This document shows positions 1-14,415 of a DNA stretch of 14,415 nt, piece after piece. Position numbers and translations under genes: made by a program. The DNA is taken from the IMG/VR virus record IMGVR_UViG_2711768057_000001. One strand, 5' to 3'. This DNA is from a virus (taxonomy: Duplodnaviria; Heunggongvirae; Uroviricota; Caudoviricetes). The first letter of the stretch is position 1; each line of letters starts with the position of its first letter. The notes beneath the pieces are model-generated. The model did not search any database. It had not been told where the DNA came from and worked only from the letters and a program-made list of their open reading frames with translations.

Positions 1-19
1 ATGGCGCTCATAAATCTGG

Positions 20-25
20 TATACT
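20..25 (+). promoter_or_regulatory. Candidate -10 hexamer (TATACT) of the ssrA promoter; the -35 would lie outside the window
   Basis: TATACT at 20-25 puts a start site about 7 nt upstream of the mature tmRNA 5' end at 40, consistent with a short precursor leader. Confidence 0.4.
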
Positions 26-39
26 TACCTTTACACATT

Positions 40-402
40 GGGGCTGATTCTGGATTCGACGGGATTTGCGAAACCCAAGGTGCATGCCGAGGGGCGGTTG
101 GCCTCGTAAAAAGCCGCAAAAAATAGTCGCAAACGACGAAAACTACGCTTTAGCAGCTTAATAACCTGCTTAGAGCCCTCTCTCCCTAGCCTCCGCTCTT
201 AGGACGGGGATCAAGAGAGGTCAAACCCAAAAGAGATCGCGTGGAAGCCCTGCCTGGGGTTGAAGCGTTAAAACTTAATCAGGCTAGTTTGTTAGTGGCG
301 TGTCCGTCCGCAGCTGGCAAGCGAATGTAAAGACTGACTAAGCATGTAGTACCGAGGATGTAGGAATTTCGGACGCGGGTTCAACTCCCGCCAGCTCCAC
401 CA
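40..402 (+). ncRNA. ssrA: tmRNA (transfer-messenger RNA, SsrA), 363 nt
   Basis: Begins GGGGCTGATTCTGGATTCGAC and ends GGTTCAACTCCCGCCAGCTCCACCA (tRNA-Ala-like acceptor/T-arm with CCA). Contains the internal tag reading frame at 129-161. Matches my recollection of E. coli ssrA. Confidence 0.96.
129..161 (+). other. tmRNA tag-peptide reading frame encoding ANDENYALAA followed by a stop
   Basis: GCA AAC GAC GAA AAC TAC GCT TTA GCA GCT TAA read directly from the sequence; this is the canonical SsrA degradation tag. Confidence 0.9.
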
Positions 403-412
403 AATCATGATC
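385..412. repeat. attL: ssrA 3'-terminal core sequence, left junction of the integrated island
   Basis: CTCCCGCCAGCTCCACCAAATCATGATC recurs in imperfect form at 9323-9348 (CTCCGCCAGCTCCACCAATCATGATT). Confidence 0.75.
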
Positions 413-438
413 CGGATACGTCCGGTGAAGTACAGAAA

Positions 439-470
439 GCCCGCACAGCACAAGCCCTGCGGGCTTTTTT
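439..470 (+). terminator. Rho-independent terminator downstream of ssrA
   Basis: Stem GCCCGCA (439-445) paired with TGCGGGC (458-464), followed by TTTTTT (465-470). Confidence 0.7.
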
Positions 471-514
471 GTGTCTGTCGTTGTCCGAGAACATCCGGCT
501 AAATCCAGAGAAAA

Positions 515-543
515 TTGGTACACGTTTAGGTACACGCTATACT
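515..543 (+). promoter_or_regulatory. Candidate sigma70 promoter for int (TTGGTA, 17 nt spacer, TATACT), overlapped by GGTACACG direct repeats
   Basis: TTGGTA at 515-520 and TATACT at 538-543 with a 17 nt spacer. GGTACACG occurs at 517-524 and 529-536, with an inverted GTACCA at 560-565. Confidence 0.45.
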
Positions 544-585
544 GTGGTCCATTAAACATGTACCAATTATGGAAGGGATCCAGAT

Positions 586-1776
586 ATGGCGCGTATCACA
601 CGCCCCCTCACTAACAATGAAATCCTTAAAGCCAAACCCCGTGAAAAAGACTTCACCCTTCATGATGGTGATGGCTTGTTCTTGCTCGTCAAAACCACTG
701 GTAAAAAACTCTGGCGCTTCCGTTATCAACGACCGGGAAGCAGCAGCCGCACAAATTTGAGTCTCGGCTCATACCCTGCCCTTACACTCGCAGCAGCACG
801 TCAGATACGCGACCAGCACTTAATCACGCTTGCGCAAGGCATGGATCCACAACAGCAACAGGAGCAGGCGTCAGAACAACGCCAGATTGAGTTAGACAGC
901 ATTTTCTCAACAGTAGCTGCTAAATGGTTCCAGATTAAAAGCAGAAGTGTCACAGAGGATTATGCAAAGGATATTTGGCGTTCTTTGGATAAAGACGTGT
1001 TCCCGGCAATCGGTGCGATACCAGTTCAGGAGATTAAGGCCAGAACGATTGTTGAAGCATTGGAGCCAATAAAAGCACGTGGCGCATTAGAGACGGTTCG
1101 TCGCCTAGTCCAGCGTATTAACGAGATAATGATTTACGCGGTTAATACCGGTCTGATTGATGCAAATCCGGCATCAGGTGTTGGAATGGCATTTGAGAAA
1201 CCCAAAAAACAAAACATGCCCACGCTACGACCAGAAGAATTACCCAAGCTGATGCGTTCTCTGGTCATGTCAAATCTATCTGTTTCGACTCGCTGTCTTA
1301 TTGAGTGGCAGCTTCTGACCCTAGTGCGTCCTTCTGAGGCTTCTGGTGCTCGCTGGGTAGAGATCGATCTCGATGCCAAACTCTGGACGATTCCCGCCGA
1401 ACGAATGAAGGCTAAGCGTGAACACATTGTTCCTTTATCACCACAAGCATTAGAAATTCTGGATGTGATGAAACCTATCAGTGCTCATCGTGAGCATATT
1501 TTCCCGAGCAGGAATGATCCAAAGCACGCCATGAATAGTCAGACAGCAAATGCAGCGCTGAAACGTATTGGCTATGGAGGAAAACTCGTAGCCCATGGAT
1601 TACGCTCTATTGCCAGTACGGCCATGAATGAAGCTGGATTTAATGCTGATGTGATAGAGGCTGCTTTAGCCCATTCTGATAAAAATGAAGTAAGAAAAGC
1701 TTATAACCGCTCTACATATTTAGAACAACGTAAAGAGCTTATGTCATGGTGGGGAAGTCGAGTAAATAAAATATGA
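586..1776 (+). CDS. int: Tyrosine recombinase, P4-type integrase (396 aa)
   Basis: Full ORF with a GGAAGGG Shine-Dalgarno upstream. N-terminus MARITRPLTNNEILKAKPREKDFTLHDGDGLFLLV is typical of P4/CP4-57-type integrases, and the C-terminal catalytic region has HGLRS...Y. Position directly 3' of tmRNA fits. Confidence 0.9.
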   Translation: MARITRPLTNNEILKAKPREKDFTLHDGDGLFLLVKTTGKKLWRFRYQRPGSSSRTNLSLGSYPALTLAAARQIRDQHLITLAQGMDPQQQQEQASEQRQIELDSIFSTVAAKWFQIKSRSVTEDYAKDIWRSLDKDVFPAIGAIPVQEIKARTIVEALEPIKARGALETVRRLVQRINEIMIYAVNTGLIDANPASGVGMAFEKPKKQNMPTLRPEELPKLMRSLVMSNLSVSTRCLIEWQLLTLVRPSEASGARWVEIDLDAKLWTIPAERMKAKREHIVPLSPQALEILDVMKPISAHREHIFPSRNDPKHAMNSQTANAALKRIGYGGKLVAHGLRSIASTAMNEAGFNADVIEAALAHSDKNEVRKAYNRSTYLEQRKELMSWWGSRVNKI

Positions 1777-1782
1777 AAAAAC

Positions 1783-1807
1783 AGCATCGCCTTTAATGAC
1801 GATGCTG
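1783..1807 (-). terminator. Hairpin between the convergent int and helicase genes; likely terminator of the minus-strand defence operon
   Basis: CAGCATCG (1783-1790) pairs with CGATGCTG (1800-1807); an A-run at 1777-1781 supplies the T-tract on the minus strand. Confidence 0.5.
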
Positions 1808-1813
1808 CGTGTC

Positions 1814-3712
1814 TTACTGCATATCGAGGAAGAATCTTGATGCAGGATGATATTTATAATCCCCCCAAGGCATCATTCTTTTTTCTGGATAAGTAACAAA
1901 AATCCAACGCCGAGATCGTGTTATAGCTACGAAAGCATTATTTCTTTCTTCATCTAGCTCGACTTTGCTCTTAGCTCGATAATCTGGAAAAACCCCCTCA
2001 CACATACCGATAAGGAAAACTATATCTTTTTCAAGTCCTTTCATTGTATGAACAGTACTTAACATAATCCCATTATTTAAGGTATCATCATTAAGCTGAC
2101 CCAAAGCAAGTGCATTCCTAAATGAGGATAGATTATCACCGAGGCCTTTACGTTTGAATCGTGTCCACATGGATTGAAGCTGCTCTATATCTTTAATCCC
2201 TGTGGCAATATCATCTTCTTTAGCAGAATCTTTGGTATTTGCTCCTAAATTCACCAGTTCTGATTTAATATCTAAACAGAACTTCAAAATATTAGGTGTG
2301 TCTACAGACATATGATCAATATGTGCTAAAACCAAGCTAATTAAATCTTTATCTAGGTTAGATGATTTTTTTATGTCAGCATAGACTTTGCTAATATCGT
2401 AGGTAACATCTGATTCTGGATTTAATTCTAAACCGATTAATTTATACAATCTCTTCCCATCAACCCAATCCTTTGGATTAACCTTAACCCTTATAGCAAG
2501 ATCGACTATTTTCCCAATAAGAGAAACAGGCGATTCATTTCTATCACTACGCTTTAGGAAATAAGGTATATTTCTTTTTTTAAGCTCACTTTCCATAGCT
2601 TTAAAAACAAATCTATTTCTACCTATAACAACAATTTTAGAGCAATCAATATCGCCCTCAATTTCTGGATGTCTTTTTAAATTCAGTATATGTTGAATGC
2701 TATCACAAACCCATATAGCTTCAGATTCTTCATCTGGTAAAGCATTAAAAGATTTATAGCCATCAAGAGCAGCATTAACACCAACTTGGCTATTTGGTTT
2801 TAATTTATTAGCTAATTCAATCACTGCTTTCGAAGATCTATAGTTCTCGTTTAAACAATAAATTTTAGGAGTAAAATCTTTCACGAATGATTTAATAAAA
2901 TAATCTGATGATGAACCATTAAAACCATAGATCATCTGGTCACTATCACCAACCATCATGACATCTTTTATTTTATCACCGCAGAGAACCTTTATAAATT
3001 CGTACTGAGCTCTGTTTAAGTCTTGAGCTTCATCAACAAATAAAGCAACGTATTTTTTTTGATATATTCTTGCTACTGAATCTTGATTTAATAGGATTTT
3101 ATGTGCATATAAAAGTATATCATCAAAATCCACACCACCACTTTCCAATAAAGCAGACTGATAATCTTGATAAATATTCCAAATACGCGGATTGGAACTG
3201 AATTTTATCTTTACTTCATCTTCAGTTAAAAGCTCTCTTTTAATAATAGAGAATACATTAAGATATTGACTTATAATTTTTTCACGATTGCGCTTTTCTC
3301 TAACGTCCTCAACATCTAAGTATTCATCAATATTAACCCCCTGTTCTCTTAAGGAATGTAGAAAAACCTCCATCCGATCTTGGTCACGTTCAAATATATG
3401 TAATTCTTTTGGTAACCCAATAGTATACCCATAACTTTCGAGTACCCTTTGTGCAACAGAATGAATCGTAGCAATCCAAATCCTATCACGATTTTCTGAG
3501 CCATCATCTAACCTTTCAAGCATTTCATCTGCTGCTTTATTTGTGAATGTTAAAGCAACCACACTTCCTCTAGCAGAGTTATTGAGAATGAACCTAACCC
3601 TCTCAGTAAGCACTCTTGTTTTACCAGACCCTGCAGATGCAAGAACTTGTATAGCCCCTCCCATAGGAGCTTTAACAACTTCAATTTGAGATTGTGATAA
3701 ATTATCAATCAT
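1814..3712 (-). CDS. gajB: UvrD/PcrA/Rep-like superfamily 1 helicase (632 aa), Gabija GajB-like
   Basis: SF1 helicase motifs read from the translation: I AGSGKT, Ia TFTNKAADEM, II VDEAQD, III VGDSDQMIYGF, IV NYRSS, V TVHTMKGLEKDIVF, VI VAITRSRR. Start ATG overlaps the upstream OLD-like stop (ATGA at 3709-3712). Confidence 0.8.
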   Translation of the reverse strand: MIDNLSQSQIEVVKAPMGGAIQVLASAGSGKTRVLTERVRFILNNSARGSVVALTFTNKAADEMLERLDDGSENRDRIWIATIHSVAQRVLESYGYTIGLPKELHIFERDQDRMEVFLHSLREQGVNIDEYLDVEDVREKRNREKIISQYLNVFSIIKRELLTEDEVKIKFSSNPRIWNIYQDYQSALLESGGVDFDDILLYAHKILLNQDSVARIYQKKYVALFVDEAQDLNRAQYEFIKVLCGDKIKDVMMVGDSDQMIYGFNGSSSDYFIKSFVKDFTPKIYCLNENYRSSKAVIELANKLKPNSQVGVNAALDGYKSFNALPDEESEAIWVCDSIQHILNLKRHPEIEGDIDCSKIVVIGRNRFVFKAMESELKKRNIPYFLKRSDRNESPVSLIGKIVDLAIRVKVNPKDWVDGKRLYKLIGLELNPESDVTYDISKVYADIKKSSNLDKDLISLVLAHIDHMSVDTPNILKFCLDIKSELVNLGANTKDSAKEDDIATGIKDIEQLQSMWTRFKRKGLGDNLSSFRNALALGQLNDDTLNNGIMLSTVHTMKGLEKDIVFLIGMCEGVFPDYRAKSKVELDEERNNAFVAITRSRRWIFVTYPEKRMMPWGDYKYHPASRFFLDMQ

Positions 3713-5484
3713 AGCTCAAGCCATCCCCTAACTTTATTAAATGCAATAATAACAGATTCCGGAAGTAATTCCTCAATTCTCTTTCCATTTGCATTCTGTG
3801 CTAGAATCACCCCTAAATACCCTGCATAACTAGCTTTTGAGTCACGCATTTTTTCAATTATAGCACTATCTTGTAAAGCCTCTATTTCTCTTTTCTTGGC
3901 ATCTCGATACCGTTCATTAGGACTAGCTTTGGTTTCACTTAACACTAATGATTCAATTATTTCCTCACGAATATTCAACTCGTTGTATAACTCAGCTTCA
4001 ATATCATTTGTTTCTTTGAGGAACTCTAAGGAGAAACAATCAGGATTCAATACGAGGCCATCTTCACGAACTAAACGTGCTACCTGACGGTTTATCTCAC
4101 CATGAGTATCACCATCATTATCACTAATAATACAGACAGGGATACCTAAATTACTTGCAAGTTTAATGAATGGTGGGTAATTTTTACCACTGACACTTAC
4201 ACAGTTAACTCCAACACTGAACATCGTCCTACCGAAATACAATTCAAACATGGATGGTATTAATTGTTCTTCTGTAACACCCTCACATAAAATTAAGGCT
4301 CGAGAGAAAAGCAACTCACCACGGGTTAACATTATCTCCCTTTTTAATGCATTTTTTTCATCATGTTCAATTCTTTTCTTCAGACAATTTACTGTTACTC
4401 CATCACCTTTCTTTATGAATGATCTTATATCTTCTATCTCAGCCATTGCGCTCAGGTATGGTGAATGAGTACTCAGTATAATTTGTCCCTGAGATGATGA
4501 TAACTGTTTAAACAAGGTTCTTTGTGCATTGGGATGTAGATGCGCTTCTGGCTCTTCAGCTCCAACAATTGGATGTAGCGCCTTATTTTCGAGCTCATGC
4601 CGCTCATGCATAAAGCTTAAAAACGATTGAACTGTAAGCATTGAAGCCCAACTTCTCGTCCCCGTGCCATGATATTCCATTGAAAATGAATGGTTTTCTT
4701 CATCTCCGAAATGTACTGTAAATTGCTTTGATAGATCTCGGATTTTTTTAGGGAAAGGAGTTATTTCTGTGTGGCTTGATCCTAGAAATGATTGGTTTAA
4801 CCCTTGAAGTGAATTTTTTAAGCTTTGAAGCGGCTCACTTCTACTCACTGCGGTTTCATTTATTGAACTTATCATTTCTTCAAGTGCAGTAACATCTTCA
4901 TCTTCATATTTAATATATGATAAGACCTTCCCTATATATGAGCTTTTATCTTTAAGCTCATGATGTATATCCCTCTGAGCCTCAATACAAATATAGGGGA
5001 TTGCATCAACTTTTGTTCTTACCTTTCTTCTCTCGTTGACAACAATGTCTTTCCATCCCTCAAACTCCCCCCATTCATTCAAATAATAACGTTGTGTATT
5101 AAACCCACCTTTTATCTCATCTGGCTGAACTTTTGTACGAATAGCCACAAACTCATGTCCATTTGCATCTACTGCAATATTATCACCGAAAACATCAATC
5201 CATTTTTCGTCAAACTCTTCTGTTTTATTACAATGTTCATCCGTAGGTATTATTTTTAAGTCAACGATAACTTCATTAACTTTTAATCCAGAACTATCTA
5301 TATGAAGATCTTCATCACTAAAGTAACGTTGGTAATCACCTAAAGCTAGTTGCAACGATTTTAGGAAAGATGTTTTCCCCGCATTGTTTGTACCTAACAA
5401 AACGGCAATACGTCCTAGCTCAACCTCAATTTCCTTTATACCTCTAAAACCTGAAATCCTAACAGAATTTATAAGAATTGACAT
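3709..5484 (-). CDS. gajA: OLD-family ATP-dependent nuclease (N-terminal ABC-type ATPase plus C-terminal TOPRIM; 591 aa), Gabija GajA-like
   Basis: Walker A GTNNAGKTS, Walker B-like IVGAEEPEAHLHP, H-loop STHSP, and TOPRIM motifs LILCEGVTEEQ and ISDNDGD. AGGAGG Shine-Dalgarno upstream. Paired in an operon with a UvrD-like helicase, the class 2 OLD/Gabija arrangement. Confidence 0.8.
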   Translation of the reverse strand: MSILINSVRISGFRGIKEIEVELGRIAVLLGTNNAGKTSFLKSLQLALGDYQRYFSDEDLHIDSSGLKVNEVIVDLKIIPTDEHCNKTEEFDEKWIDVFGDNIAVDANGHEFVAIRTKVQPDEIKGGFNTQRYYLNEWGEFEGWKDIVVNERRKVRTKVDAIPYICIEAQRDIHHELKDKSSYIGKVLSYIKYEDEDVTALEEMISSINETAVSRSEPLQSLKNSLQGLNQSFLGSSHTEITPFPKKIRDLSKQFTVHFGDEENHSFSMEYHGTGTRSWASMLTVQSFLSFMHERHELENKALHPIVGAEEPEAHLHPNAQRTLFKQLSSSQGQIILSTHSPYLSAMAEIEDIRSFIKKGDGVTVNCLKKRIEHDEKNALKREIMLTRGELLFSRALILCEGVTEEQLIPSMFELYFGRTMFSVGVNCVSVSGKNYPPFIKLASNLGIPVCIISDNDGDTHGEINRQVARLVREDGLVLNPDCFSLEFLKETNDIEAELYNELNIREEIIESLVLSETKASPNERYRDAKKREIEALQDSAIIEKMRDSKASYAGYLGVILAQNANGKRIEELLPESVIIAFNKVRGWLEL

Positions 5485-5601
5485 ATATTCATTCCCTCCT
5501 TGATTTTATGACATATACATTCCGAATAAATGTAATAATTCTGTTATCCAGATTATCATTTGCGGAAAATAAAATATAGTATATCCCAACCCTGCCGCGC
5601 A

Positions 5602-5620
5602 ATGCTCTCCCCGCCACGCC
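5602..5620 (-). other. cos-like 19-mer resembling the P2/P4 cohesive end
   Basis: Minus strand reads GGCGTGGCGGGGAGAGCAT, 16 of 19 matches to the P2/P4 cos sequence GGCGAGGCGGGGAAAGCAC as I recall it. It sits between psu and the cargo, as in P4-like elements. Confidence 0.5.
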
Positions 5621-5793
5621 TGCCCGCTTAAGGGGCCGCTTTTAATGCAGGTGCAAAGGTAGATTCAGGCCGCGCCGCGACTGGCGCTGGCAGGGAGTAC
5701 AGGGGTGGGAAAACGCATGCAAAACCATGCACCTTATGGATGCATGGCTTTTTTCGGGAAAAATAGCGGAATTTCCGGGGATGTTTTTGCGTG

Positions 5794-6360
5794 CTACCGT
5801 GCGGCCAGTTCTGCACGCCGGCGGGTATAAATCATGTTCTGTACAGGGGTGAATTTTTCACGATTATCATCCCGCGAAGGCGCGTCAGGCCTGTATCCGA
5901 TGGCCGTTAAAATGTCGTTATCCTGTGCAGAATAATTAATTTCATTTCCTGCGGCCAGCCAGACGGAAAGAGCTTCTCGCAGGTAATCTACTGAACGGTC
6001 AAGCGCACGGTTTTTTATCATCTCAGGCTGGTTCTTAATCCCCATCAGCTCCGGTGCCAGTGCGGCGGCCAGCTCTGCGCCGTCCTGCTGCATAAAATCA
6101 TGCAGCCGGTTACGAATGCTGATGCGCTGCACCTCTTCATGCGAGAAAATGTAGCGACCGGCGGCCTGATTAACTTCCCATTTTTTTATGTCAATCAGGT
6201 CGCGCTGCGACTGTAATCCGCGGGAACCTGATGCGTTGTCATCCAGCAATAATTCCTGATATTCCTGCACTGCGGCGGCCAGTTCGGCTTTACGGTTCAG
6301 CCACGCGGTTTTGTTCGTCTGACAGGCTTCATAGGCCTGCTGTAAGGTCAGGGTGGTCAC
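5794..6360 (-). CDS. psu: Psu-like polarity suppression / capsid decoration protein (188 aa)
   Basis: Translation MTTLTLQQAYEACQTNKTAWLNRKAELAAA...KWEVNQAAGRYI...FTPVQNMIY resembles P4 Psu as recalled. GTG start with AGGAGA Shine-Dalgarno 8 nt upstream. Confidence 0.8.
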   Translation of the reverse strand: MTTLTLQQAYEACQTNKTAWLNRKAELAAAVQEYQELLLDDNASGSRGLQSQRDLIDIKKWEVNQAAGRYIFSHEEVQRISIRNRLHDFMQQDGAELAAALAPELMGIKNQPEMIKNRALDRSVDYLREALSVWLAAGNEINYSAQDNDILTAIGYRPDAPSRDDNREKFTPVQNMIYTRRRAELAAR

Positions 6361-6376
6361 GGGTTGTCTCTCCTGA

Positions 6377-6622
6377 TTAGTGGCGGAACGGCGAGCTGTA
6401 GCAATCTTTTACCCGGCGAGGTGCTGCGGGTATTGTCGGCACCGGCGCGGGTTTCTCATCGATGACCGGAGAACGTATCACTTCAAAGATGGACTCATGC
6501 GTTTTGAATGTCGCCGAGCAGTGCACATTCTGGCACTGCAGGTAACTCTCTTTGACGCTCTCGGACATATAGCGGCTGGTGCGGACGTGAGCCGCCGTGC
6601 GGCAGAAAGGGCAGCGCATCAT
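6377..6622 (-). CDS. Ogr/Delta-family zinc-finger late transcription activator (81 aa, single domain)
   Basis: CPFC...C(x)nC zinc-finger pattern (MMRCPFCRTAAHVRTSRYMSESVKESYLQCQNVHCSATF), similar to P2 Ogr. Start overlaps the sid stop (ATGA at 6619-6622). Confidence 0.8.
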   Translation of the reverse strand: MMRCPFCRTAAHVRTSRYMSESVKESYLQCQNVHCSATFKTHESIFEVIRSPVIDEKPAPVPTIPAAPRRVKDCYSSPFRH

Positions 6623-7356
6623 GACAGTAGCCCCCGTGCTTTCAGGTCGGCTTCACGTTCCCGCATTTTTTCCTGCCAGACTTTCCGCTGAACGGGCGTG
6701 GCCGCAACGTCATGCTCCATATGCGGCAGCGTGGAGGCCGACAGCCCTGTTTTAAACAGCACCGGTTCATCGGTCAGACGGATATTGCAGCCCTTTACGG
6801 CCTGTTCAAGCCACGCTTTCACCTGCTGCATTACAACTTTTTCCGGTTCGGTATATCCCTGATGGCCTGTGGTATTGGCTAGCGGGTTATTCAGAACCAG
6901 TATGTTGAGTTTCATTGCCCTGACCAGCGCGCTACAGGTGTCACGCAGGGCAACATCAAGCTCATGCTCTGCATACTGGCTGAGGACGCTGTGATGTGCC
7001 TGACGATACGCTCTGGCCGTCCGGTCACACGCTCCTTTAAGGCTGTCCAGCTCAAAAGACAGAACCTCAGCCATATTGTCACATTCCTGCGCCAGTTCCC
7101 GCCGTGCCACGCGCGTCAGATGGCGTTGTTTCAGCTCGCCGGTAACGACAGCACCACCGGCACGAAAGGCGGCGCGCCATGCGCCGGAATCATTGTCATT
7201 TTCCTGCTCCAGTTCCTTTTTTTGTGCTTTCACCTGGCTGACGGCCGCCGTGGTTTCATCCATACGGCTGGCATTGGCGAGATGCGCCGAGCGGGCAGTC
7301 TCAAGGCGTTCCATTGCAGGTTTAAGGTAGTCGGGAATAACAGCGGTCTGAGTCAT
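6619..7356 (-). CDS. sid: Sid-like capsid size determination (external scaffold) protein, about 245 aa
   Basis: Translation MTQTAVIPDYLKPAMERLETARSAHLANASRMDETTAAV...ARGLLS resembles P4 Sid as recalled. I place the start at the internal ATG at 7356 (AGGAGA Shine-Dalgarno 6 nt upstream), not the ORF-track start at 7422. Confidence 0.8.
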   Translation of the reverse strand: MTQTAVIPDYLKPAMERLETARSAHLANASRMDETTAAVSQVKAQKKELEQENDNDSGAWRAAFRAGGAVVTGELKQRHLTRVARRELAQECDNMAEVLSFELDSLKGACDRTARAYRQAHHSVLSQYAEHELDVALRDTCSALVRAMKLNILVLNNPLANTTGHQGYTEPEKVVMQQVKAWLEQAVKGCNIRLTDEPVLFKTGLSASTLPHMEHDVAATPVQRKVWQEKMREREADLKARGLLS

Positions 7357-7428
7357 GTCAGGTCTCCTCTTCATTTCAATCTGAGGAGATTCTGCCGCGC
7401 CAGACACAACAACACGATTCATTGCCGT

Positions 7429-7446
7429 TGTGGCAAAAATGGCACA
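7429..7446. promoter_or_regulatory. TGT-N12-ACA dyad, candidate Ogr/Delta activator site of the late sid promoter
   Basis: TGTGGCAAAAATGGCACA lies about 75-90 bp upstream of the sid ATG on the minus strand; TGT-N12-ACA is the known recognition pattern of P2/P4 late promoters. Confidence 0.55.
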
Positions 7447-7533
7447 AACAGACCTTAAAACCCGGCTGGCCAGAGAAAGGTCTCAGGAAAACCTTACTCA
7501 CTGTTTGTTTTTTTACTAATAACTATTCACTAC

Positions 7534-7627
7534 TGTTCACCTTGAGAAAAAAGATAAGTAATACAGTTAATTAAAGGGTGAACAGTTGAAGGTCTGACTG
7601 TTCACCGTCTGTTCACCACTGTTCACC
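7534..7627. repeat. Iteron cluster: four direct copies of TGTTCACC (three at about 10 bp phasing) plus one inverted copy
   Basis: Direct copies at 7534-7541, 7599-7606, 7610-7617 and 7620-7627; inverted GGTGAACA at 7577-7584. The octamer is identical to the P4 type I iteron bound by alpha protein, as I recall it. Confidence 0.6.
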
Positions 7628-7709
7628 CTTCTGTTTTTCTCTGCCGATACCTTTTAGACTTTATTTCGATTAAAAATCGAAATATATAACTAAAGGAAAT
7701 AGAAATTGC

Positions 7710-7763
7710 TGCATTGTAATGCAGTGATTTGCATCTGTTTGCCAGCGTTTGCCTTTGTTTGCC
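7710..7763. promoter_or_regulatory. Palindrome TGCATT-GT-AATGCA followed by three helically phased GTTTGCC repeats; candidate operator upstream of vis
   Basis: Palindrome at 7710-7723; GTTTGCC at 7737-7743, 7747-7753 and 7757-7763, exactly 10 bp apart. Confidence 0.4.
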
Positions 7764-7892
7764 ATAGCGAAAAGTCAATGTTTGTTTCCATGAAAATCTC
7801 ACATGACCTGAGGAAAAATATAGACATAATAAGGAGCTACCCGAAGCCGGGCGGACACGACCGGCACAGTATGGACTTTATGAGGTAGCCCG

Positions 7893-8159
7893 ATGCACAC
7901 TGCTTTTTCTTCCCCGTCTTCTGCCCCTGCCGCGCCACTGATACCGGTCTCTGATGCCGTTCAGGAGCGATTTATCCGCCTGCCTGAAGTGATGCATCTG
8001 TGCGGCCTGTCACGGTCAACCATTTACGACCTCATCAGCCGGGAAGCCTTCCCGAAACAAATCTCCCTCGGTGGAAAAAACGTGGCGTGGGCGCACTCAG
8101 AAATCATGGCATGGATGACTGACCGCATTGCCGAACGTAACCGGGGTTATGACGCATGA
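7893..8159 (+). CDS. vis: AlpA/Vis-family helix-turn-helix regulator (88 aa)
   Basis: [48 protein letters not shown] matches the AlpA-family pattern (RLPEV...G.S..TIY......FP......V.W...EI..W). Position divergent from sid corresponds to P4 vis (orf88). Confidence 0.7.
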
Positions 8160-8194
8160 TGGTGACCATTCAGCAAACAGCCCCTTTTTCTGGC

Positions 8195-8224
8195 TTGCTT
8201 CCCTTCGCCGTTTCCAGGTATAGT
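8195..8224 (+). promoter_or_regulatory. Candidate sigma70 promoter (TTGCTT, 18 nt spacer, TATAGT), P4 PLE-like early promoter
   Basis: Hexamers at 8195-8200 and 8219-8224, immediately upstream of the seqA-like element. Confidence 0.35.
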
Positions 8225-8253
8225 TTTATCGCTGTCGCAAAATCGGCAGCCGG

Positions 8254-8279
8254 GCGTAGGAACCCGTGTAATTCACAGG
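8254..8279 (+). promoter_or_regulatory. seqA-like element (GCGTAGGAAC ... ATTCACAGG), upstream target of the immunity RNA
   Basis: Direct repeat of the element at 8461-8501 and complementary to 8416-8436. Confidence 0.5.
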
Positions 8280-8286
8280 CGACAAC

Positions 8287-8309
8287 AGACGCGCCATGCG
8301 TCTTTTTTT
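8287..8309 (+). terminator. Intrinsic terminator hairpin with a T7 tract inside the early leader
   Basis: AGACGC, loop GCCAT, GCGTCT, then TTTTTTT (8303-8309). Confidence 0.55.
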
Positions 8310-8384
8310 ACGTCGTTGCTCAGGCACACCCATTTTTCGGGCTGTGGTGCTTATCCCATAGCCCCTGTCAGATAATGGTGGTCC

Positions 8385-8440
8385 GGGCGGGGCAGCCTTC
8401 GGGCTGGCCGGTATTCTGTGAAGCCGGTATTCCTACCCCC
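8385..8440 (+). ncRNA. Candidate P4 CI-like immunity RNA core (seqB plus a UUCG-tetraloop hairpin); boundaries approximate
   Basis: Hairpin CAGCC-TTCG-GGCTG at 8393-8406. The 8416-8436 segment (CTGTGAAGCCGGTATTCCTAC) is the reverse complement, in bipartite form, of GTAGGAA and TTCACAG in the seqA and seqC repeats. Confidence 0.4.
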
Positions 8441-8460
8441 GTTCGGGTCACCACCCATGA

Positions 8461-8501
8461 GCGTAGGAACTCCGGTGGTGGCAATAACCGCTATTCACAG
8501 G
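8461..8501 (+). promoter_or_regulatory. seqC-like element overlapping the ribosome-binding site of the first early ORF
   Basis: GCGTAGGAAC at 8461-8470 and ATTCACAGG at 8493-8501; the Shine-Dalgarno AGGAGG at 8499-8504 overlaps it. Confidence 0.5.
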
Positions 8502-8512
8502 AGGTTGCCCTT

Positions 8513-8707
8513 ATGGCTACGACCCTCACCCCGTCACACCCGCAGTTTGTTTTTGTGTTTGCCGCCGTTCGTCGCGCCGACCGTAAACTCCGCATCTGTA
8601 TGCTTCGTACCGTTGCCGGTGATGAACACGCCGCACGTCTTTCCCTCGTTCGCGATTACGTCCTCTCGTTTGCTGGCCGTCTGCCGGTTGCGGAGGTGCG
8701 CGCATGA
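8513..8707 (+). CDS. Small early-operon protein (64 aa), hypothetical; positionally kil-like
   Basis: Internal ATG at 8513 with AGGAGG Shine-Dalgarno 9 nt upstream. The upstream 119 codons of the ORF-track call (8156..8707) cover the structured RNA region and are not credible coding. Stop overlaps the next start (ATGA). Confidence 0.55.
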
Positions 8708-8931
8708 GACACTCCACCATTACCGCCCGAGACCTCGAATGTCTGGAGCATATGCGCAACGTCGGCCAGCTCGTCGGCGACCTGATGCAGGTGCAGGACT
8801 GCGCGACCGTTAGGCGTGACCCTGCGCAGCAGTTACAGCTCACCTCCGTGATTTACCTCATGACCGCCCAGCTAGACAGCGTGGTCGAGCGCTGCAATCA
8901 GCACTGGCTGACCGGGGAGGGTAATGTATGA
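8704..8931 (+). CDS. Small early-operon protein (75 aa), hypothetical
   Basis: GGAGGT Shine-Dalgarno 6 nt upstream; ATGA overlaps at both ends indicate translational coupling. Confidence 0.5.
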
Positions 8932-9248
8932 AAAAGCCATTACCACCCGTATTACGTGCCGCGCTGTATCGTCGCGCCGTGGCCTGTGCATGGCTAACCC
9001 TGTGCGAACGTCAGCACCGCTATCCGCAACTCACCCTCGATGCACTCGAAAGCGCCATTGCCGCCGAGCTGGAGGGCTTCTACCTGCGCCAGCATGGCGA
9101 GGAAAAAGGCCGTCAGATTGCCTGTGCACTGCTGGAAGATTTAATGGAAGCTGGGCCACTCAAGGCCGCGCCCTCACTGTCCTTTCTCGGGCTCGCGGTG
9201 ATGGATGAACTTTGCGCCCGTCATATCACCGCACCGGTACTGCACTGA
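8928..9248 (+). CDS. Small early-operon protein (106 aa), hypothetical
   Basis: GGGGAGGG Shine-Dalgarno upstream; start overlaps the previous stop (ATGA). Last gene before attR. Confidence 0.55.
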
Positions 9249-9322
9249 GGGAGAAAATAACAATGAAAATGAATGTACGGAAAAATCCTTTATATTTAAT
9301 ACATTGAGAAATTTATTCAGAC

Positions 9323-9348
9323 TCCGCCAGCTCCACCAATCATGATTG
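9323..9348. repeat. attR: imperfect direct repeat of the ssrA 3' end, right junction of the island
   Basis: CTCCGCCAGCTCCACCAATCATGATT versus attL CTCCCGCCAGCTCCACCAAATCATGATC; the two copies differ by two single-base indels and one terminal substitution. Confidence 0.7.
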
Positions 9349-9468
9349 GACGGTATAAGGACAACACCAATAAAAACAGGAAGTTAGCAGTCTCAGCAGG
9401 ACACCGACCAGACGGTGAAGAGACATAAAAGGATACGCAAAGGAGCCGCGGCTCCTGGTGACATGAAA

Positions 9469-9489
9469 GCCCACAGATGTGGGCTTTTT
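9469..9489 (+). terminator. Rho-independent terminator-like hairpin downstream of attR
   Basis: GCCCAC, loop AGAT, GTGGGC, then TTTTT; resembles the hairpin after ssrA at attL. Confidence 0.5.
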
Positions 9490-9498
9490 CGTTGATGG

Positions 9499-12400
9499 TC
9501 AGAACGACCAGTTCACACCAGCTACCCCGTTCCACGGGGATTCCACACCGGCACCATGGCTATACCCCACCCCAAGATGCCCGCTTAACGTACTGCTGAA
9601 TGAGGCTTTAATACCTGCCTGGTATATTCCACGTCTGCCCGACAAATCATTGACGAAATTACCGTCACTATTCACTTTCACCCGGTTATCATCGACAAAT
9701 TCTTTGCGCACAGCCGCCTTCAGCCACGGCTCAACTTCCATACCGTTCCCCAGACGCATGTTGTAACTCAGCGTTGCACCCAGTTCACGATATAAACTGC
9801 GGGTATCGACTGATTTCGATTCCATGCCATTGGATAAATGATATTCAGGGTTATCAGCGGTGAACCCCCGTTAACGATGCATACGGCGTCAGGTTCCAGT
9901 TACCATCGGTAAATCGCATCCCGGTTTCAATGTGACCGCCCAGCCCGTTGCTGCGATAACTGCCGTTGGCGGCTCCACCGCTGCCAACCGTGGAGTCGCG
10001 AGCTTCGGTACCTGCTAATACCAATAAATTACCGCCATTTTCCAGCAACATATTGGTCGCTAAATTGCCGGAAATGGAAAAAGTGCCGTACTGGTGAGTA
10101 CCGCTGATTTCAATACCGTTAGCCGTGCTCGTCTGGAGAGCGGCACCGCTGTTCTGGACGATATCTGTCGCTTTGCCATTATCGTTAACTGTCAGCGTAC
10201 CGCCTTCATTGATCTTTGTTTTTATTGCCTCTCCGTTAGCTGAAACTGTTTGTATTCCGCCGTCGTTAATCGTTGTCTCATTCGCCACCCCCTCGACGAT
10301 TTGTTCGCCGCCGGTGAGCGTCGTGCCTGTCGCAGTGGCTTTTGTTTTGACGATCTCCCGTCCGCCCGTATTGACCTGTGTTTTGTCAGAAGAGGTGTCT
10401 GACTCCATGGTTAACACGCCGCCATTTGCCAGCAGGATATTGTTCGCCGCACCCTGCTCGATGCTGAACGCGACGCCATCCGCGCGTGTTCCTGTGACCC
10501 GCGTCGCCCTGGTGGTTGCAACCAAAGCGTCCTGGCTACTCTGCTGTATCCCCGTTGCGCTGCCTTTCTCCCGCACATCGAGTGTGCCGCCGTCATTAAG
10601 CACCGAGTTTTCAGCCAGACCGCCCTCATTAACTACCTGTGAACACCCATTAATAATGGAACCTTCCGCTGTCCCGTTTGCCATAATTTGTTGTAGGCCA
10701 GAGACGATATCGGTATTGATTGCCTTACCATAATTCTGAACGGTTTGCGTGCCACCATTGATGTGTGTTTTCTCTGTTGACCCACCATCAACAATTTGTT
10801 CACCACTTTCGATATTTGCCTCAGTGGCTAATCCATATACCGTTTGCTTGCCACCTTTGATATTTGCTTTATCAGAAGTGGCACTGGCATATATTGTTTG
10901 GGTGCCAGCACTATTGAGTACAGTGCCAACATCTTTTCCATAAACATCCATTTTGCCGTTGGCATTAATAATCGTATCAACTGCCCGGGAACCAGTGACG
11001 ACTGTTAATGAGCCAGCGTTTTCCAGCACTACATTTTTAGCTTCTGAATTCCTGATGTAGAAAGCATCACCATAACTGTTGGTTCCTTCGATAAGGGTTC
11101 CGGAAGTTGTGGAAGCAATTAATGCGCCGCCGGATTGTTGCTCAACATGCTTAGCCTCACCACCGTCCTGAACCTCCAGAACGCCACCATTATTAAGTCT
11201 GGTGGTATCTGTTTTAGCCTCCTTCTGGACAATCAGCTTACCGCCAGCATCAACGGTAGTATTTTTCGCCGAGGTTTTAGCCACTACCGTCAGTTCGCCG
11301 GTATTTTCCAGCACAACATAATTAGCCTCCCCTCCGGTAATAGTGAAGTGAGAGAGCTTGTTGTATCCTTCAATATCAGTCCCTGCGCCCGTGTTGGCAA
11401 CTAAAGCACTGCCCGTCTCCTGGTTAACCCCATGTGCAATACCACCGGTATAGACAATCAGCGAGCCTCCGGCGCTAATATTGCTGCCAGTTGCCGTACC
11501 ATCTTTCTCAACAACCTGCCGGCTCCCGGAGGATATAATTGTCGTGTCAGCTTTCCCGCCGCTCTTGATATTTTGCGTTCCGCCGTTGATATTGGTACCC
11601 GTGGCAATACCATGATTATTAATATTCTGTGTACCACCATTGATTATGGTATTGGTCGCGTTTCCGGTAACATCCATTACCCCGCCGTTATCTATTCGGG
11701 TCGCATCAGCTTTAGCATTCGTTAAAACTGACATTGTTCCTTTATCTTTAATAATCGTCTTGTTTGCCGAACCATATGCGTTTATGTCTAAATGACCACC
11801 GTTTTCCAGCAACACATTGTCTGCCACGTGATTGTGGATGGAGAATGCACCTTCACTATTCGTACCGCTCACCGTCGTACCGTTAGTGTTTGTTTTTAAA
11901 ATTGCACCATCGTGCTGGGTAACATTTGTTGCCGTACCACCACTAACATCAAGCACGCCACCGGAATAAACTTCAATAACATCCGAGGAGCTGGTGTAAT
12001 CAACAATTTGCGTACCACCAGAATAGATCTGAGTATTTTTGCCGTTGACTTATTATTCAGAGACTGAGTTCCACCTTCAATCATCGTGTCCAGCGCATGG
12101 CTTTCATATACTCTTTGCTCACCGCCATTTTTAATGGTGGTTGTTCCTACTGTGCTCTGTTCAACATACTGTCGTCCACCATTTATGATTGTGTTCGTTG
12201 CAATACTTCCTTGCGTGATGTCCTGATAACCGGACTTATTTATCGTTGTACCATCAACATGCCCCTGAGTTGTTACTTTCTGCCCTCCACCATCAATGAT
12301 GGTTCCATTCGCAGTCCCCCCACTTATGTGTGAATTACCACCCTTAATTGTCGTTCCATTGCTGATACCACCTGTATAAACGTCCTGATTGCCACTGTCG

Positions 12401-12768
12401 ATTATCGTACCGGTGGAAATGCCCCCGTCATGAATTGTCTGTCTTCCTCCGTTAATGGTTGTATTATTAGCCTGCCCCACAAAATTGTTATGACTTCCTA
12501 CATCTTGATATCCACCCGATTCAATAAGACTTCCATTAGATACCCCGCCATGAACATTCTGCTGGCCATGGTTGATAATATGAGTGTTATTTGTTGTACC
12601 TCGTTCATCTACTCTTTGGCTGCCATCTACAGTCTCATCGTTTACCACACCAATAACATCAGGAGTGAAGGCCGTCATCCCAGGCGGGGCATATATCAAG
12701 GCAGATATCAATAAGGAAAGTACTGAGCGGCGACAATAATGGGGACTGGTCCTGTTCATAAATTTCAT
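9499..12768 (-). pseudogene. ypjA: ypjA-like autotransporter adhesin split over three reading frames, with a short C-terminal beta-domain
   Basis: N-terminal fragment has a signal peptide (MKFMNRTSPHYCRRSVLSLLISALIYAPPGMTA); a 700 aa repetitive passenger region follows; the C-terminal fragment ends ...GVESPWNGVAGVNWSF, the autotransporter terminal signature. The three ORFs (11896..12888, 9854..11956, 9499..9825) are contiguous but in different frames. Confidence 0.7.
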
Positions 12769-13139
12769 CCTCTGAAAAGTGAATACTGAGTAGCGTTTAA
12801 GCGACCTTAGCTCTGCTGCAACATCAGCCCACAGGCACCAGACCAGGGGATTCATCCTGAAGAGACAGCGCAAGTGTATTGTGTTCACCGCTCATCAAAG
12901 ACATCATGATGAAATGATGATATTCCACATAAGAAAGAAGCATTTTTTAAACGCAGTGCGCTGAAGTATGGTTGGATAAAAAAGTCAATCTATTCAGGGA
13001 ATACGGGGGTATTCTTTTCTTTCGACAATCAGGCCGTCGGCAAAATAAAATGATTTACATAATCGTTTCTGATGAATATCTTCTGCTCACATAAAAATAA
13101 CACAATAACTTTGAGATCGCAGATTCTTTTACTTTTACA

Positions 13140-13290
13140 GCATTCGTCCCCCCATTGTTGGGCAAATATAGATTGGGCCAGAGCACGAAAGTTAATACCA
13201 CGTTTGCACAGCTCCTCCAACAGCACGACAAGATGCCACATACTGCGCCCCAGTCGGTTCGGTTTACAGACTACCCGTGCGTCCACCGCC
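13140..13290 (-). pseudogene. Serine recombinase (Pin/Hin/Gin-type invertase) remnant; approximate extent
   Basis: ORF 13029..13286 contains VVCKPNRLGRSMWHLVVLLEELCKRGINFRAL, matching the conserved invertase motif (VVWKLDRLGRS...L...EL...GI.FRSL). The catalytic N-terminus and the C-terminal HTH are absent. Confidence 0.4.
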
Positions 13291-13671
13291 GATAATGTCC
13301 TGAGCAGTTTTTTCAGTCCGGACCTCCTGCCACGGTTTTACGTTGAAGAGGTAACCCTGAGCACGCAGTTCATCAGTCAGGCGTGGTGTACCGTAACCCT
13401 ATTATTGATGGGTAAGATCAAAAAAACTTTCAGGCAGCTAAGGAAAGTTGAACCAGACATTAGAATAAATATTTCAACCAATTACAGCACCAATTCAGAC
13501 ACCGCCAGCTCAACAAATAAATCAAGGGGTTACGTGAAAGCGTAGCCCCTTTTTCTTTGGTAGTGGCAGCAAAATGGTTGTAGTGTAAAAAATAATCCCG
13601 TTTAATCAATCAATAATACATATTGTTTCAATCTACGTTATTATCTCTTTGTAAAAATAGCCATTTATTAA

Positions 13672-14415
13672 TCATTGAAAACTGCTTTTAGAACTTGATA
13701 CAACGGGACTAGTCACAACAGGACTATTCTCAACGGGATCATCCTCAGAGGAACTATCATCAAAGTCATCATCCATAAATAAAATATCATCGAATGGTGC
13801 CACGCCCGTGATGAGTTTTATTTTATTATTACGATCAGTCAAGACTCCACTTAAACCGTTTTCGCTCACAGGTTTTAATGATTTTTCATTACTCTTGTTG
13901 TAAGCAGGCGCATTAAAAATACACGGAGTATCAAGATCAAACAATGACGTTCCCCAGTTCACATATTGAATATCATAGTTACTGAAGTTCTGTCCAGAAA
14001 AGAAGCATCCCTTAAAATCCAATCCACCTAAATTATATAAACCATCCTCTTCTTTTTGGAGAGCAATGTTAATTTTGGCTATCTCCCGGACATCATCGCC
14101 ATTTTTATATTTGAATACCGTTTCAAGATTTTCCCCACACAGTTTGACTTCTGGAAATAATTTGAAATCAAAGCCTATATTATTATGTATCAACGTAGAT
14201 GAACAAAAGATGGAGAAAGCTTGCAGTGCTGAATTATAGCTTTCGATTTTATCCTGAGGCTGCGCTCTTGGTAAAAACTCATAGCAACATTCATAAAAAT
14301 TAAGTAGAAACTCTGAAGACCTTCCATTTTTATCAAATAATATCCCCTTGAACTCATTCACAAACGCATCTTTTTTTTCTTGAATATCTATGGGGTGTTC
14401 CTTTGACTCTGACAA
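13672..14415 (-). CDS. Hypothetical protein, 5' end truncated by the window edge (at least 247 aa), AT-rich, acidic Ser/Val/Pro-rich C-terminus
   Basis: Open frame from the window edge to the stop at 13672. No domain I can recognise; composition suggests horizontally acquired DNA. Confidence 0.5.
   Translation of the reverse strand: MSESKEHPIDIQEKKDAFVNEFKGILFDKNGRSSEFLLNFYECCYEFLPRAQPQDKIESYNSALQAFSIFCSSTLIHNNIGFDFKLFPEVKLCGENLETVFKYKNGDDVREIAKINIALQKEEDGLYNLGGLDFKGCFFSGQNFSNYDIQYVNWGTSLFDLDTPCIFNAPAYNKSNEKSLKPVSENGLSGVLTDRNNKIKLITGVAPFDDILFMDDDFDDSSSEDDPVENSPVVTSPVVSSSKSSFQ

Follow-up and report, generated by a model that had tools for sequence, protein, structure and literature searches.

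P4-like satellites carry a variable defense hotspot between psu and int, beside cos (Rousset et al. 2022, PMC9122126). In a census that used int, psu, delta, sid, alpA, epsilon/Ash and alpha as markers and allowed one of them to be missing, alpha-less 'Type B' sets were a recurring variant (de Sousa & Rocha 2021, PMC8628076), and defective P4-like islands with conserved defense genes, in which the primase is the core gene most often lost, have since been surveyed (NAR 2026, PMC13586616). The record of satellite P4 itself (X51522) annotates crr as required in cis for replication. Here, we analyzed the 14,415-nucleotide stretch filed as the IMG/VR virus record IMGVR_UViG_2711768057_000001 (hereafter the window, to which all coordinates refer unless stated otherwise), which contains the transfer-messenger RNA (tmRNA) gene ssrA and, next to it, a P4-like element carrying the two genes of a Gabija defense system. 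We read this element as a P4-like Gabija satellite at ssrA that lost 2,777 bp after integration and persists as a remnant in one pig-associated lineage of Escherichia coli, and we give this reading a probability of about 0.85. The family and its defective state are already described.

An island bounded by copies of the ssrA 3′ end

The ssrA gene (40..402, + strand; ARAGORN; Rfam 295.8 bits over the full model) is intact and encodes the tag ANDENYALAA. A repeat search found an exact 16-nt direct repeat, CCGCCAGCTCCACCAA, at 388..403 (+ strand), where it takes in the last 15 nt of ssrA plus one nucleotide and forms the attL core, and again at 9324..9339 (+ strand), the attR core, with the bacterial flank known from empty sites beginning at 9339/9340. 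The two copies start 8,936 bp apart, which gives an exact value to the roughly 8.9 kb estimated in a first-pass annotation of this DNA. That annotation had placed a tmRNA 3′ end at 385-412 beside a P4-type integrase and a second copy at 9323-9348; both copies are real, and its description of an imperfect repeat of 26-28 nt is accurate. Similarity beyond the exact core reaches 385-412 in the left copy and 9323-9348 in the right copy, which are offset outside the core by two gaps of one base each, CTCC(C)GCC on the left (CTCCCGCC versus CTCCGCC) and CCAA(A)TCATGAT on the right (CCAAATCATGATCC versus CCAATCATGATTGG). The 13-mer GCCAGCTCCACCA occurs in the window at these two att sites only, with 0.01 occurrences expected by chance. 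Imperfect flanks are the expected product when attB recombines with an attP resembling ssrA only in part. Decay after integration was considered as an origin of the single-base gaps and rejected, as the bacterial flank in empty sites has exactly the sequence of the right half of attR.

Joining window positions 102-402 to 9339-9640 gives a synthetic unoccupied site, which matched many E. coli genomes in one piece at 100% identity (603/603) and was covered over at least 80% of its length in 1,389 of 5,426 complete E. coli genomes. Inspection of the IAI1 locus showed the ypjA region directly after ssrA with no insert, and the empty site that the first-pass annotation had proposed to seek in related strains was thus recovered. 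The locus has both the direct repeat of the ssrA 3′ end at its two borders and the unoccupied site elsewhere that mark a site-specific tmRNA-gene island: the island occupies 403-9338, and beyond the attR core, on its right, the DNA belongs to the bacterium. A free circular form was sought in a plasmid collection with the attL-int segment, which gave only three distant matches, all in very large records filed as plasmids, and attP was therefore inferred from attL and attR.

It could be argued that the copy at 9323-9348 is an old and unrelated scar and that the true island reaches further right, through ypjA towards ileY, as ssrA is known to stack several elements (tandem arrangements are present in the related loci of MARGA_3 and DETEC-E601) and the downstream ypjA, pinH-like fragment and ypjCB are pseudogenized. 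However, insert-free genomes join ssrA to 9339/9340 onward and then to ypjA, placing ypjA and everything beyond it outside the element, and 9278-9323 is satellite DNA that is contiguous with alpha and crr in relatives, making a larger island most improbable.

Absence of alpha and crr

In P4 and in all six relatives retrieved at the ssrA locus (MARGA_3, PSS-16, 19SZHZ713Rt, GF3-3, OZ197100 and DETEC-E601), the segment after cnr contains, in this order, alpha (777 aa), crr with its type-1 repeats, another pair of arm repeats and the att core; in MARGA_3, alpha (11808-14141 of the retrieved locus) is followed by crr-type repeats, then TTGGTACACGTTTAGGTACAC and then attR. All that is left of alpha in the window is its first five codons (ATG AAA ATG AAT GTA, 9262-9277), which together with the deletion junction span 9262..9278 on the + strand. 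Alignment with PSS-16 runs up to 9283 and again from 9260, with 2,777 bp skipped, and the DNA that follows the alpha remnant lies 2,777 bp further on in PSS-16, at a point 14 nt beyond the arm repeats and 45 nt short of the core. Compared with PSS-16, the missing segment holds the alpha primase-helicase, crr and the attR-side pair of arm repeats. No alpha-like coding sequence was detected anywhere in the window using P4 alpha in tblastn (best E = 0.3), leaving the element without the alpha marker, and no alternative replication gene was found inside 403-9338.

The two sides of the deletion share only TA (~2 nt of microhomology), within a loose TGAA..TA similarity, which favors illegitimate recombination over a site-specific event. 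The breakpoint is precise to a few bases only, because the left parent is at most 94% identical in any genome; PSS-16 and GF3-3 are better right parents for placing it than MARGA_3, whose right flank differs from that of the window. Restoring the 2,777 bp gives 11,713 bp, compared with 11,624 bp for P4, and the present 8.9 kb is about three-quarters of the parental genome length. The first-pass annotation had called the element a compact P4-like satellite at ssrA; while satellite identity, site and att bounds all stand, compactness does not, as the element is short because the deletion took alpha, crr and the attR-side arm repeats. Similarly, the modules that it had listed in canonical P4 order (int, hotspot, cos, psu-delta-sid, vis, immunity RNA and early open reading frames [ORFs]) were all found in that order, but it overlooked that the canonical ending, alpha and crr, is absent.

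The P4-type tyrosine integrase (396 aa; 586..1776, + strand) has Arm-DNA-bind_3, Phage_int_M and Phage_integrase domains (PF13356, PF22022 and PF00589), is 36% identical to P4 Int (tblastn with P4 proteins) and lies at one end of the element, the place of the integrase marker in P4-like satellites. Just upstream of int are putative integrase arm-type repeats (513..568, + strand), a 12-nt tandem TTGGTACACGTT/TAGGTACACGCT at 515-535 with an inverted copy at 553-568, in a layout like that of the annotated P4 attP arm repeats, and it is here that the integrase would bind by analogy with P4. The window has the motif at this one place, which is on the attL side, and nowhere else.

Distribution of the short form

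A 321-nt probe spanning the deletion junction was compared with the 5,426 complete E. coli genomes, approximately 3,380 of which matched it in all. The probe was fully covered only in KSC9, ZH48 and ZH49, and was split by an insertion sequence (IS) in Res13-Lact-PEB08-01, so that the junction is present in 4 of the 5,426 genomes, all from pigs. The ssrA region of KSC9 (NZ_CP018323.1), a porcine E. coli, is 100% identical to the window, and the pig isolates ZH48, ZH49 and Res13-Lact-PEB08-01 match as well as KSC9 does, with 100% identity across its 14.4 kb. In the other genomes among the matches listed, the alignment stops where alpha begins, at a gene annotated as a primase-helicase. This distribution, with the short form in four genomes and the other listed matches ending at the alpha start, argues that the short form is a recent, lineage-restricted derivative. 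That the missing alpha region is merely an artifact of assembly has, in our view, a close to negligible probability, since the junction is common to four independent complete assemblies from three countries.

The insertion in Res13-Lact-PEB08-01 is an IS66-family ISCro1 at window position ~9287-9299 (9800-12493 of the retrieved locus), between the alpha remnant and attR.

Variation of the attR core

Relatives sharing the satellite-side flank of the window differ in their attR core. The window lineage has GCCAGCTCCACCAA, whereas GF3-3, OZ197100 and DETEC-E601 have GCCAGC-CCACCAA, without one T; PSS-16 and 19SZHZ713Rt have GCCAGC----CCAA, without TCCA; and MARGA_3 has GCCAG-----CCAA, without CTCCA (equivalently TCCAC). 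In the retrieved loci, the cores lie at 14640-14665 of L002 (MARGA_3), ~11205-11235 of L004, 10866-10896 of L005, ~4040-4069 of L008 and L009, and ~4040-4061 of L010. A core fully identical to ssrA was present beside this flank in only 6 of the 5,426 genomes. The T-less core is also present where the satellite abuts a different element, in DETEC-E601, and for this reason it may be the native attP half-site, with exchange taking place within the 7-nt CCACCAA. The shorter cores of PSS-16, 19SZHZ713Rt and MARGA_3 look like later losses. The differences as a whole suggest one of two origins: exchange in a CCACCAA overlap, or small deletions that arose repeatedly and would severely impair excision.

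Two of these relatives have further elements at the site. In DETEC-E601, a second integrase remnant is stacked right after the attR of the satellite, in a flank that presumably matches the CP4-57 junction of K-12. MARGA_3 has a tandem array at ssrA, with a second prophage (CI repressor, integrase and HNH endonuclease; 1-3000 of the retrieved locus) between ssrA and its Gabija-carrying P4-like element and a 45-nt copy of the ssrA 3′ end at the tandem joint.

Mobility of the element

We propose that the satellite would have been inserted into the 3′ end of ssrA by its own P4-type integrase, and that its attP would have carried a partial copy of the ssrA 3′ end, leaving the tmRNA intact. After integration, a deletion with ~2 nt of microhomology removed alpha, crr and the attR-side arm repeats, and the remnant would then have been inherited vertically as an island in one pig-associated E. 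coli lineage. Judged by analogy with P4, the element is most likely an immobilized remnant instead of a compact working satellite. Replication of the P4 kind has probably been lost, as an excised circle would not replicate because alpha and crr are gone, and excision is probably impaired, since the putative Int-binding arm repeats are on one side only and would make it inefficient. The sid-delta-psu operon with its capsid-hijacking function, ori, vis, CI RNA, cnr, int and the Gabija genes are intact, which suggests a young deletion, continued usefulness of these parts, or a combination of the two. The role that remains could be defense of the cell through Gabija and possibly expression of Sid, Psu and Delta upon infection by a P2-like phage.

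Some observations weigh against an immobilized remnant. The requirement for alpha, crr and arm sites on both sides is borrowed from P4 and lambda-type systems, and the attR core of the window has been preserved better than those of the relatives that have alpha, so that excision could still occur. In addition, many Type B elements may be functional (de Sousa & Rocha, PMC8628076), which also speaks for the opposite view, that of a functional and naturally compact satellite replicated in trans by the alpha of a co-resident P4-like element or by helper machinery, and still excised and packaged through cos. Such a satellite would fit with the intact int, vis, cos, ori repeats, sid, delta, psu and CI RNA, with attL and attR cores that are perfect over 16 nt, and with the presence in KSC9 of two more places similar to parts of the window. 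However, the five alpha codons that are left indicate that an 11.7-kb element of P4 size underwent a secondary deletion, and crr, required in cis according to the P4 record, was lost along with alpha and the attR-side arm repeats. The short form is also confined to four genomes that are identical across the locus, which indicates vertical inheritance and not spread, and an IS has since inserted into the remnant in one of the four carriers. Taking both sides into account, we consider a functional compact satellite quite improbable and retain the reading of a deleted, integrated remnant.

A more tentative proposal, which we regard as unlikely but which is compatible with that reading, is that the loss of alpha, crr and the arm site was selected as an 'anchoring' event that turned a mobile satellite into a fixed chromosomal defense island. 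An anchored island would keep Gabija together with a helper-inducible Sid/Psu/Delta module able to sabotage incoming P2-like phages, and, if anchoring did occur, the small attR-core deletions of the alpha-bearing relatives would represent an alternative route to immobilization.

Gabija cargo and the variable hotspot

Two full-length genes on the − strand make up the cargo. The first in coordinate order, gajB (1814..3712), encodes a UvrD-like helicase (PADLOC PDLC00132, 903 bits, positions 3-623 of 625), and gajA (3709..5484) encodes an OLD-family ATPase with a TOPRIM nuclease (PADLOC PDLC00067, 814 bits, positions 1-601 of 604; PF13175 and PF20469). The two genes overlap by 4 nt (3709-3712). 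Both components of Gabija, GajA with its ABC-type ATPase and OLD-like TOPRIM and the adjacent UvrD-like helicase GajB, are thus found, and on these profile matches the system is a complete two-gene set. G+C content is 31-38% in gajB and gajA versus 49-60% in the satellite core.

When the window is aligned with relatives, its variable hotspot lies at ~1733-5591; this part reaches as far as cos and takes in the last ~45 nt of int, and the DNA shared with relatives resumes at 5592. At ssrA, relatives have other cargo in this slot, including DRT3, retron St85, a Ser/Thr kinase, single ATPases and an STAS-like three-gene set, and MARGA_3 has the same Gabija cassette with 96.7% identity over 6 kb. 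Gabija was not found named as cargo of the psu-int slot in the portion of PMC9122126 that was searched. The system described here is one more cargo type of a known slot.

Packaging, immunity and early genes

A cohesive-end sequence of the P2 type, GGCGTGGCGGGGAGAGCAT, lies at 5602..5620 (− strand) and matches the P4 end at 16 of 19 positions, with 0 matches expected by chance. It is followed by the three late genes, all on the − strand and each present as a P4-like marker: psu (188 aa; 5794..6360; PF07455, E = 9.8e-87; 62% identity to P4 Psu), delta (81 aa with a single Ogr/Delta zinc-finger domain; 6377..6622; PF04606, E = 5.7e-21) and sid (6619..7356; 64% identity to P4 Sid over 240 aa, E = 2.5e-101; phrog_6165). 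Between sid and vis, at the same position as the P4 ori, an ori-like cluster contains five P4 type-1 repeats, TGTTCACC (7523..7627, + strand).

The remaining features are on the + strand. The alpA/vis marker is present as an 88-aa ORF at 7893..8159 (PF05930, E = 1.5e-20; 69% identity to P4 ORF88). An isrK-family RNA (8231..8308; Rfam) with a terminator-like hairpin at 8287-8303 and the C4/CI immunity RNA (8371..8458; Rfam 81.3 bits over the full model) are both enclosed by an Ash/'Icd-like' ORF (8156..8707), which matches the Phage_ASH profile, the 'epsilon' marker of satellite-finding schemes, and corresponds to the cI-ORF137 region of P4. Because both Rfam RNAs lie within this ORF, the Phage_ASH ('Icd-like') family may partly model sequence that encodes RNA, as was the case for the historical cI ORF of P4. 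A search for exact pairing by complements of the CI RNA similar to P4 seqA and seqC in the early transcript gave only a 9-nt exact match (8714-8722). Next comes a 75-aa ORF (8704..8931; phrog_10110), which is common in P4-like elements and absent from P4 (PMC8628076). Its position is variable, as MARGA_3 has a 41-aa ORF there (11351-11476 of the retrieved locus) and DNA identity is lost between window positions 8777 and 8865. The last complete gene of the island is a cnr-like ORF106 (8928..9248; DUF5375; 92% identity to P4 ORF106).

Chromosomal flanks

In the genome record that matches the window, ssrA is preceded by smpB and followed by ypjA, a pinH-like fragment, ypjCB and ileY. The host genes to the right of the island (9499-14415) are decayed: the ypjA autotransporter gene has a frameshift and is split, as annotated, into 9499-9825 and 9971-12759; a fragment of a pinH-like recombinase gene lies at ~13167-13334; and ypjCB is likewise frameshifted, starting at 13672. 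In genomes with an empty site, ssrA is followed by a hairpin that in the window lies at 9467-9492, ~9 kb away and beyond attR. The satellite has brought its own terminator-like hairpin with a T-run to the 3′ side of ssrA (437..472, stem 452-466, + strand; hairpin scan and sequence), 35 nt after the gene, where it would act as a terminator.

Comparison with known systems

The locus is a clean example of a pattern that has been reported at scale, in which P4-like satellites without replication function keep their defense cargo, and its value lies mostly in correct annotation. When a satellite call is short, the replication module should be checked before the element is labeled compact, and att repeats with an empty site prove insertion, not present-day mobility.

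Satellite P4 (X51522) and the window share the integrated order of att, arm repeats, int, accessory genes, cos, psu, delta, sid, ori type-1 repeats, vis, CI RNA region and cnr, and the DNA of 5485-9348 has 74% similarity to P4 over 77%. The two differ in that the integrase of P4 targets leuX and that of the window ssrA, in their arm repeats (T(T/A)GGTACACG.. in the window, TTGGGGGCAT.. in P4) and in their accessory cargo, which is Gabija in the window and gop/beta/cII in P4. Delta is a single-domain protein of 81 aa in the window and has 166 aa in P4; the window contains the 75-aa ORF and has alpha and crr deleted, and no homologues of P4 epsilon or orf151 were detected in the window by tblastn. 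CP4-57 of E. coli K-12 also has ssrA as its attachment gene, along with a P4-family integrase and an AlpA-type regulator, but it is larger and has an unrelated gene set that is not known to include psu, sid, delta or cos. The P4-like satellites of Rousset et al. have a variable cassette directly beside cos with conserved flanks, as in the window, and there is no difference of substance from them.

The closest counterparts are the Type B and defective P4-like islands, which, as in the window when the Phage_ASH match is counted for epsilon, have six of the seven markers with alpha missing and keep their defense genes intact while replication function is lost. As alpha is on this count the one marker missing and the scheme allows one, the gene content identifies the element as a P4-like Type B (alpha-less) satellite and not a complete Type A. 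Compared with the published Type B sets, the loss in the window can be traced to a single deletion, with a breakpoint placed within a few bases, that also took crr and the attR-side arm repeats.

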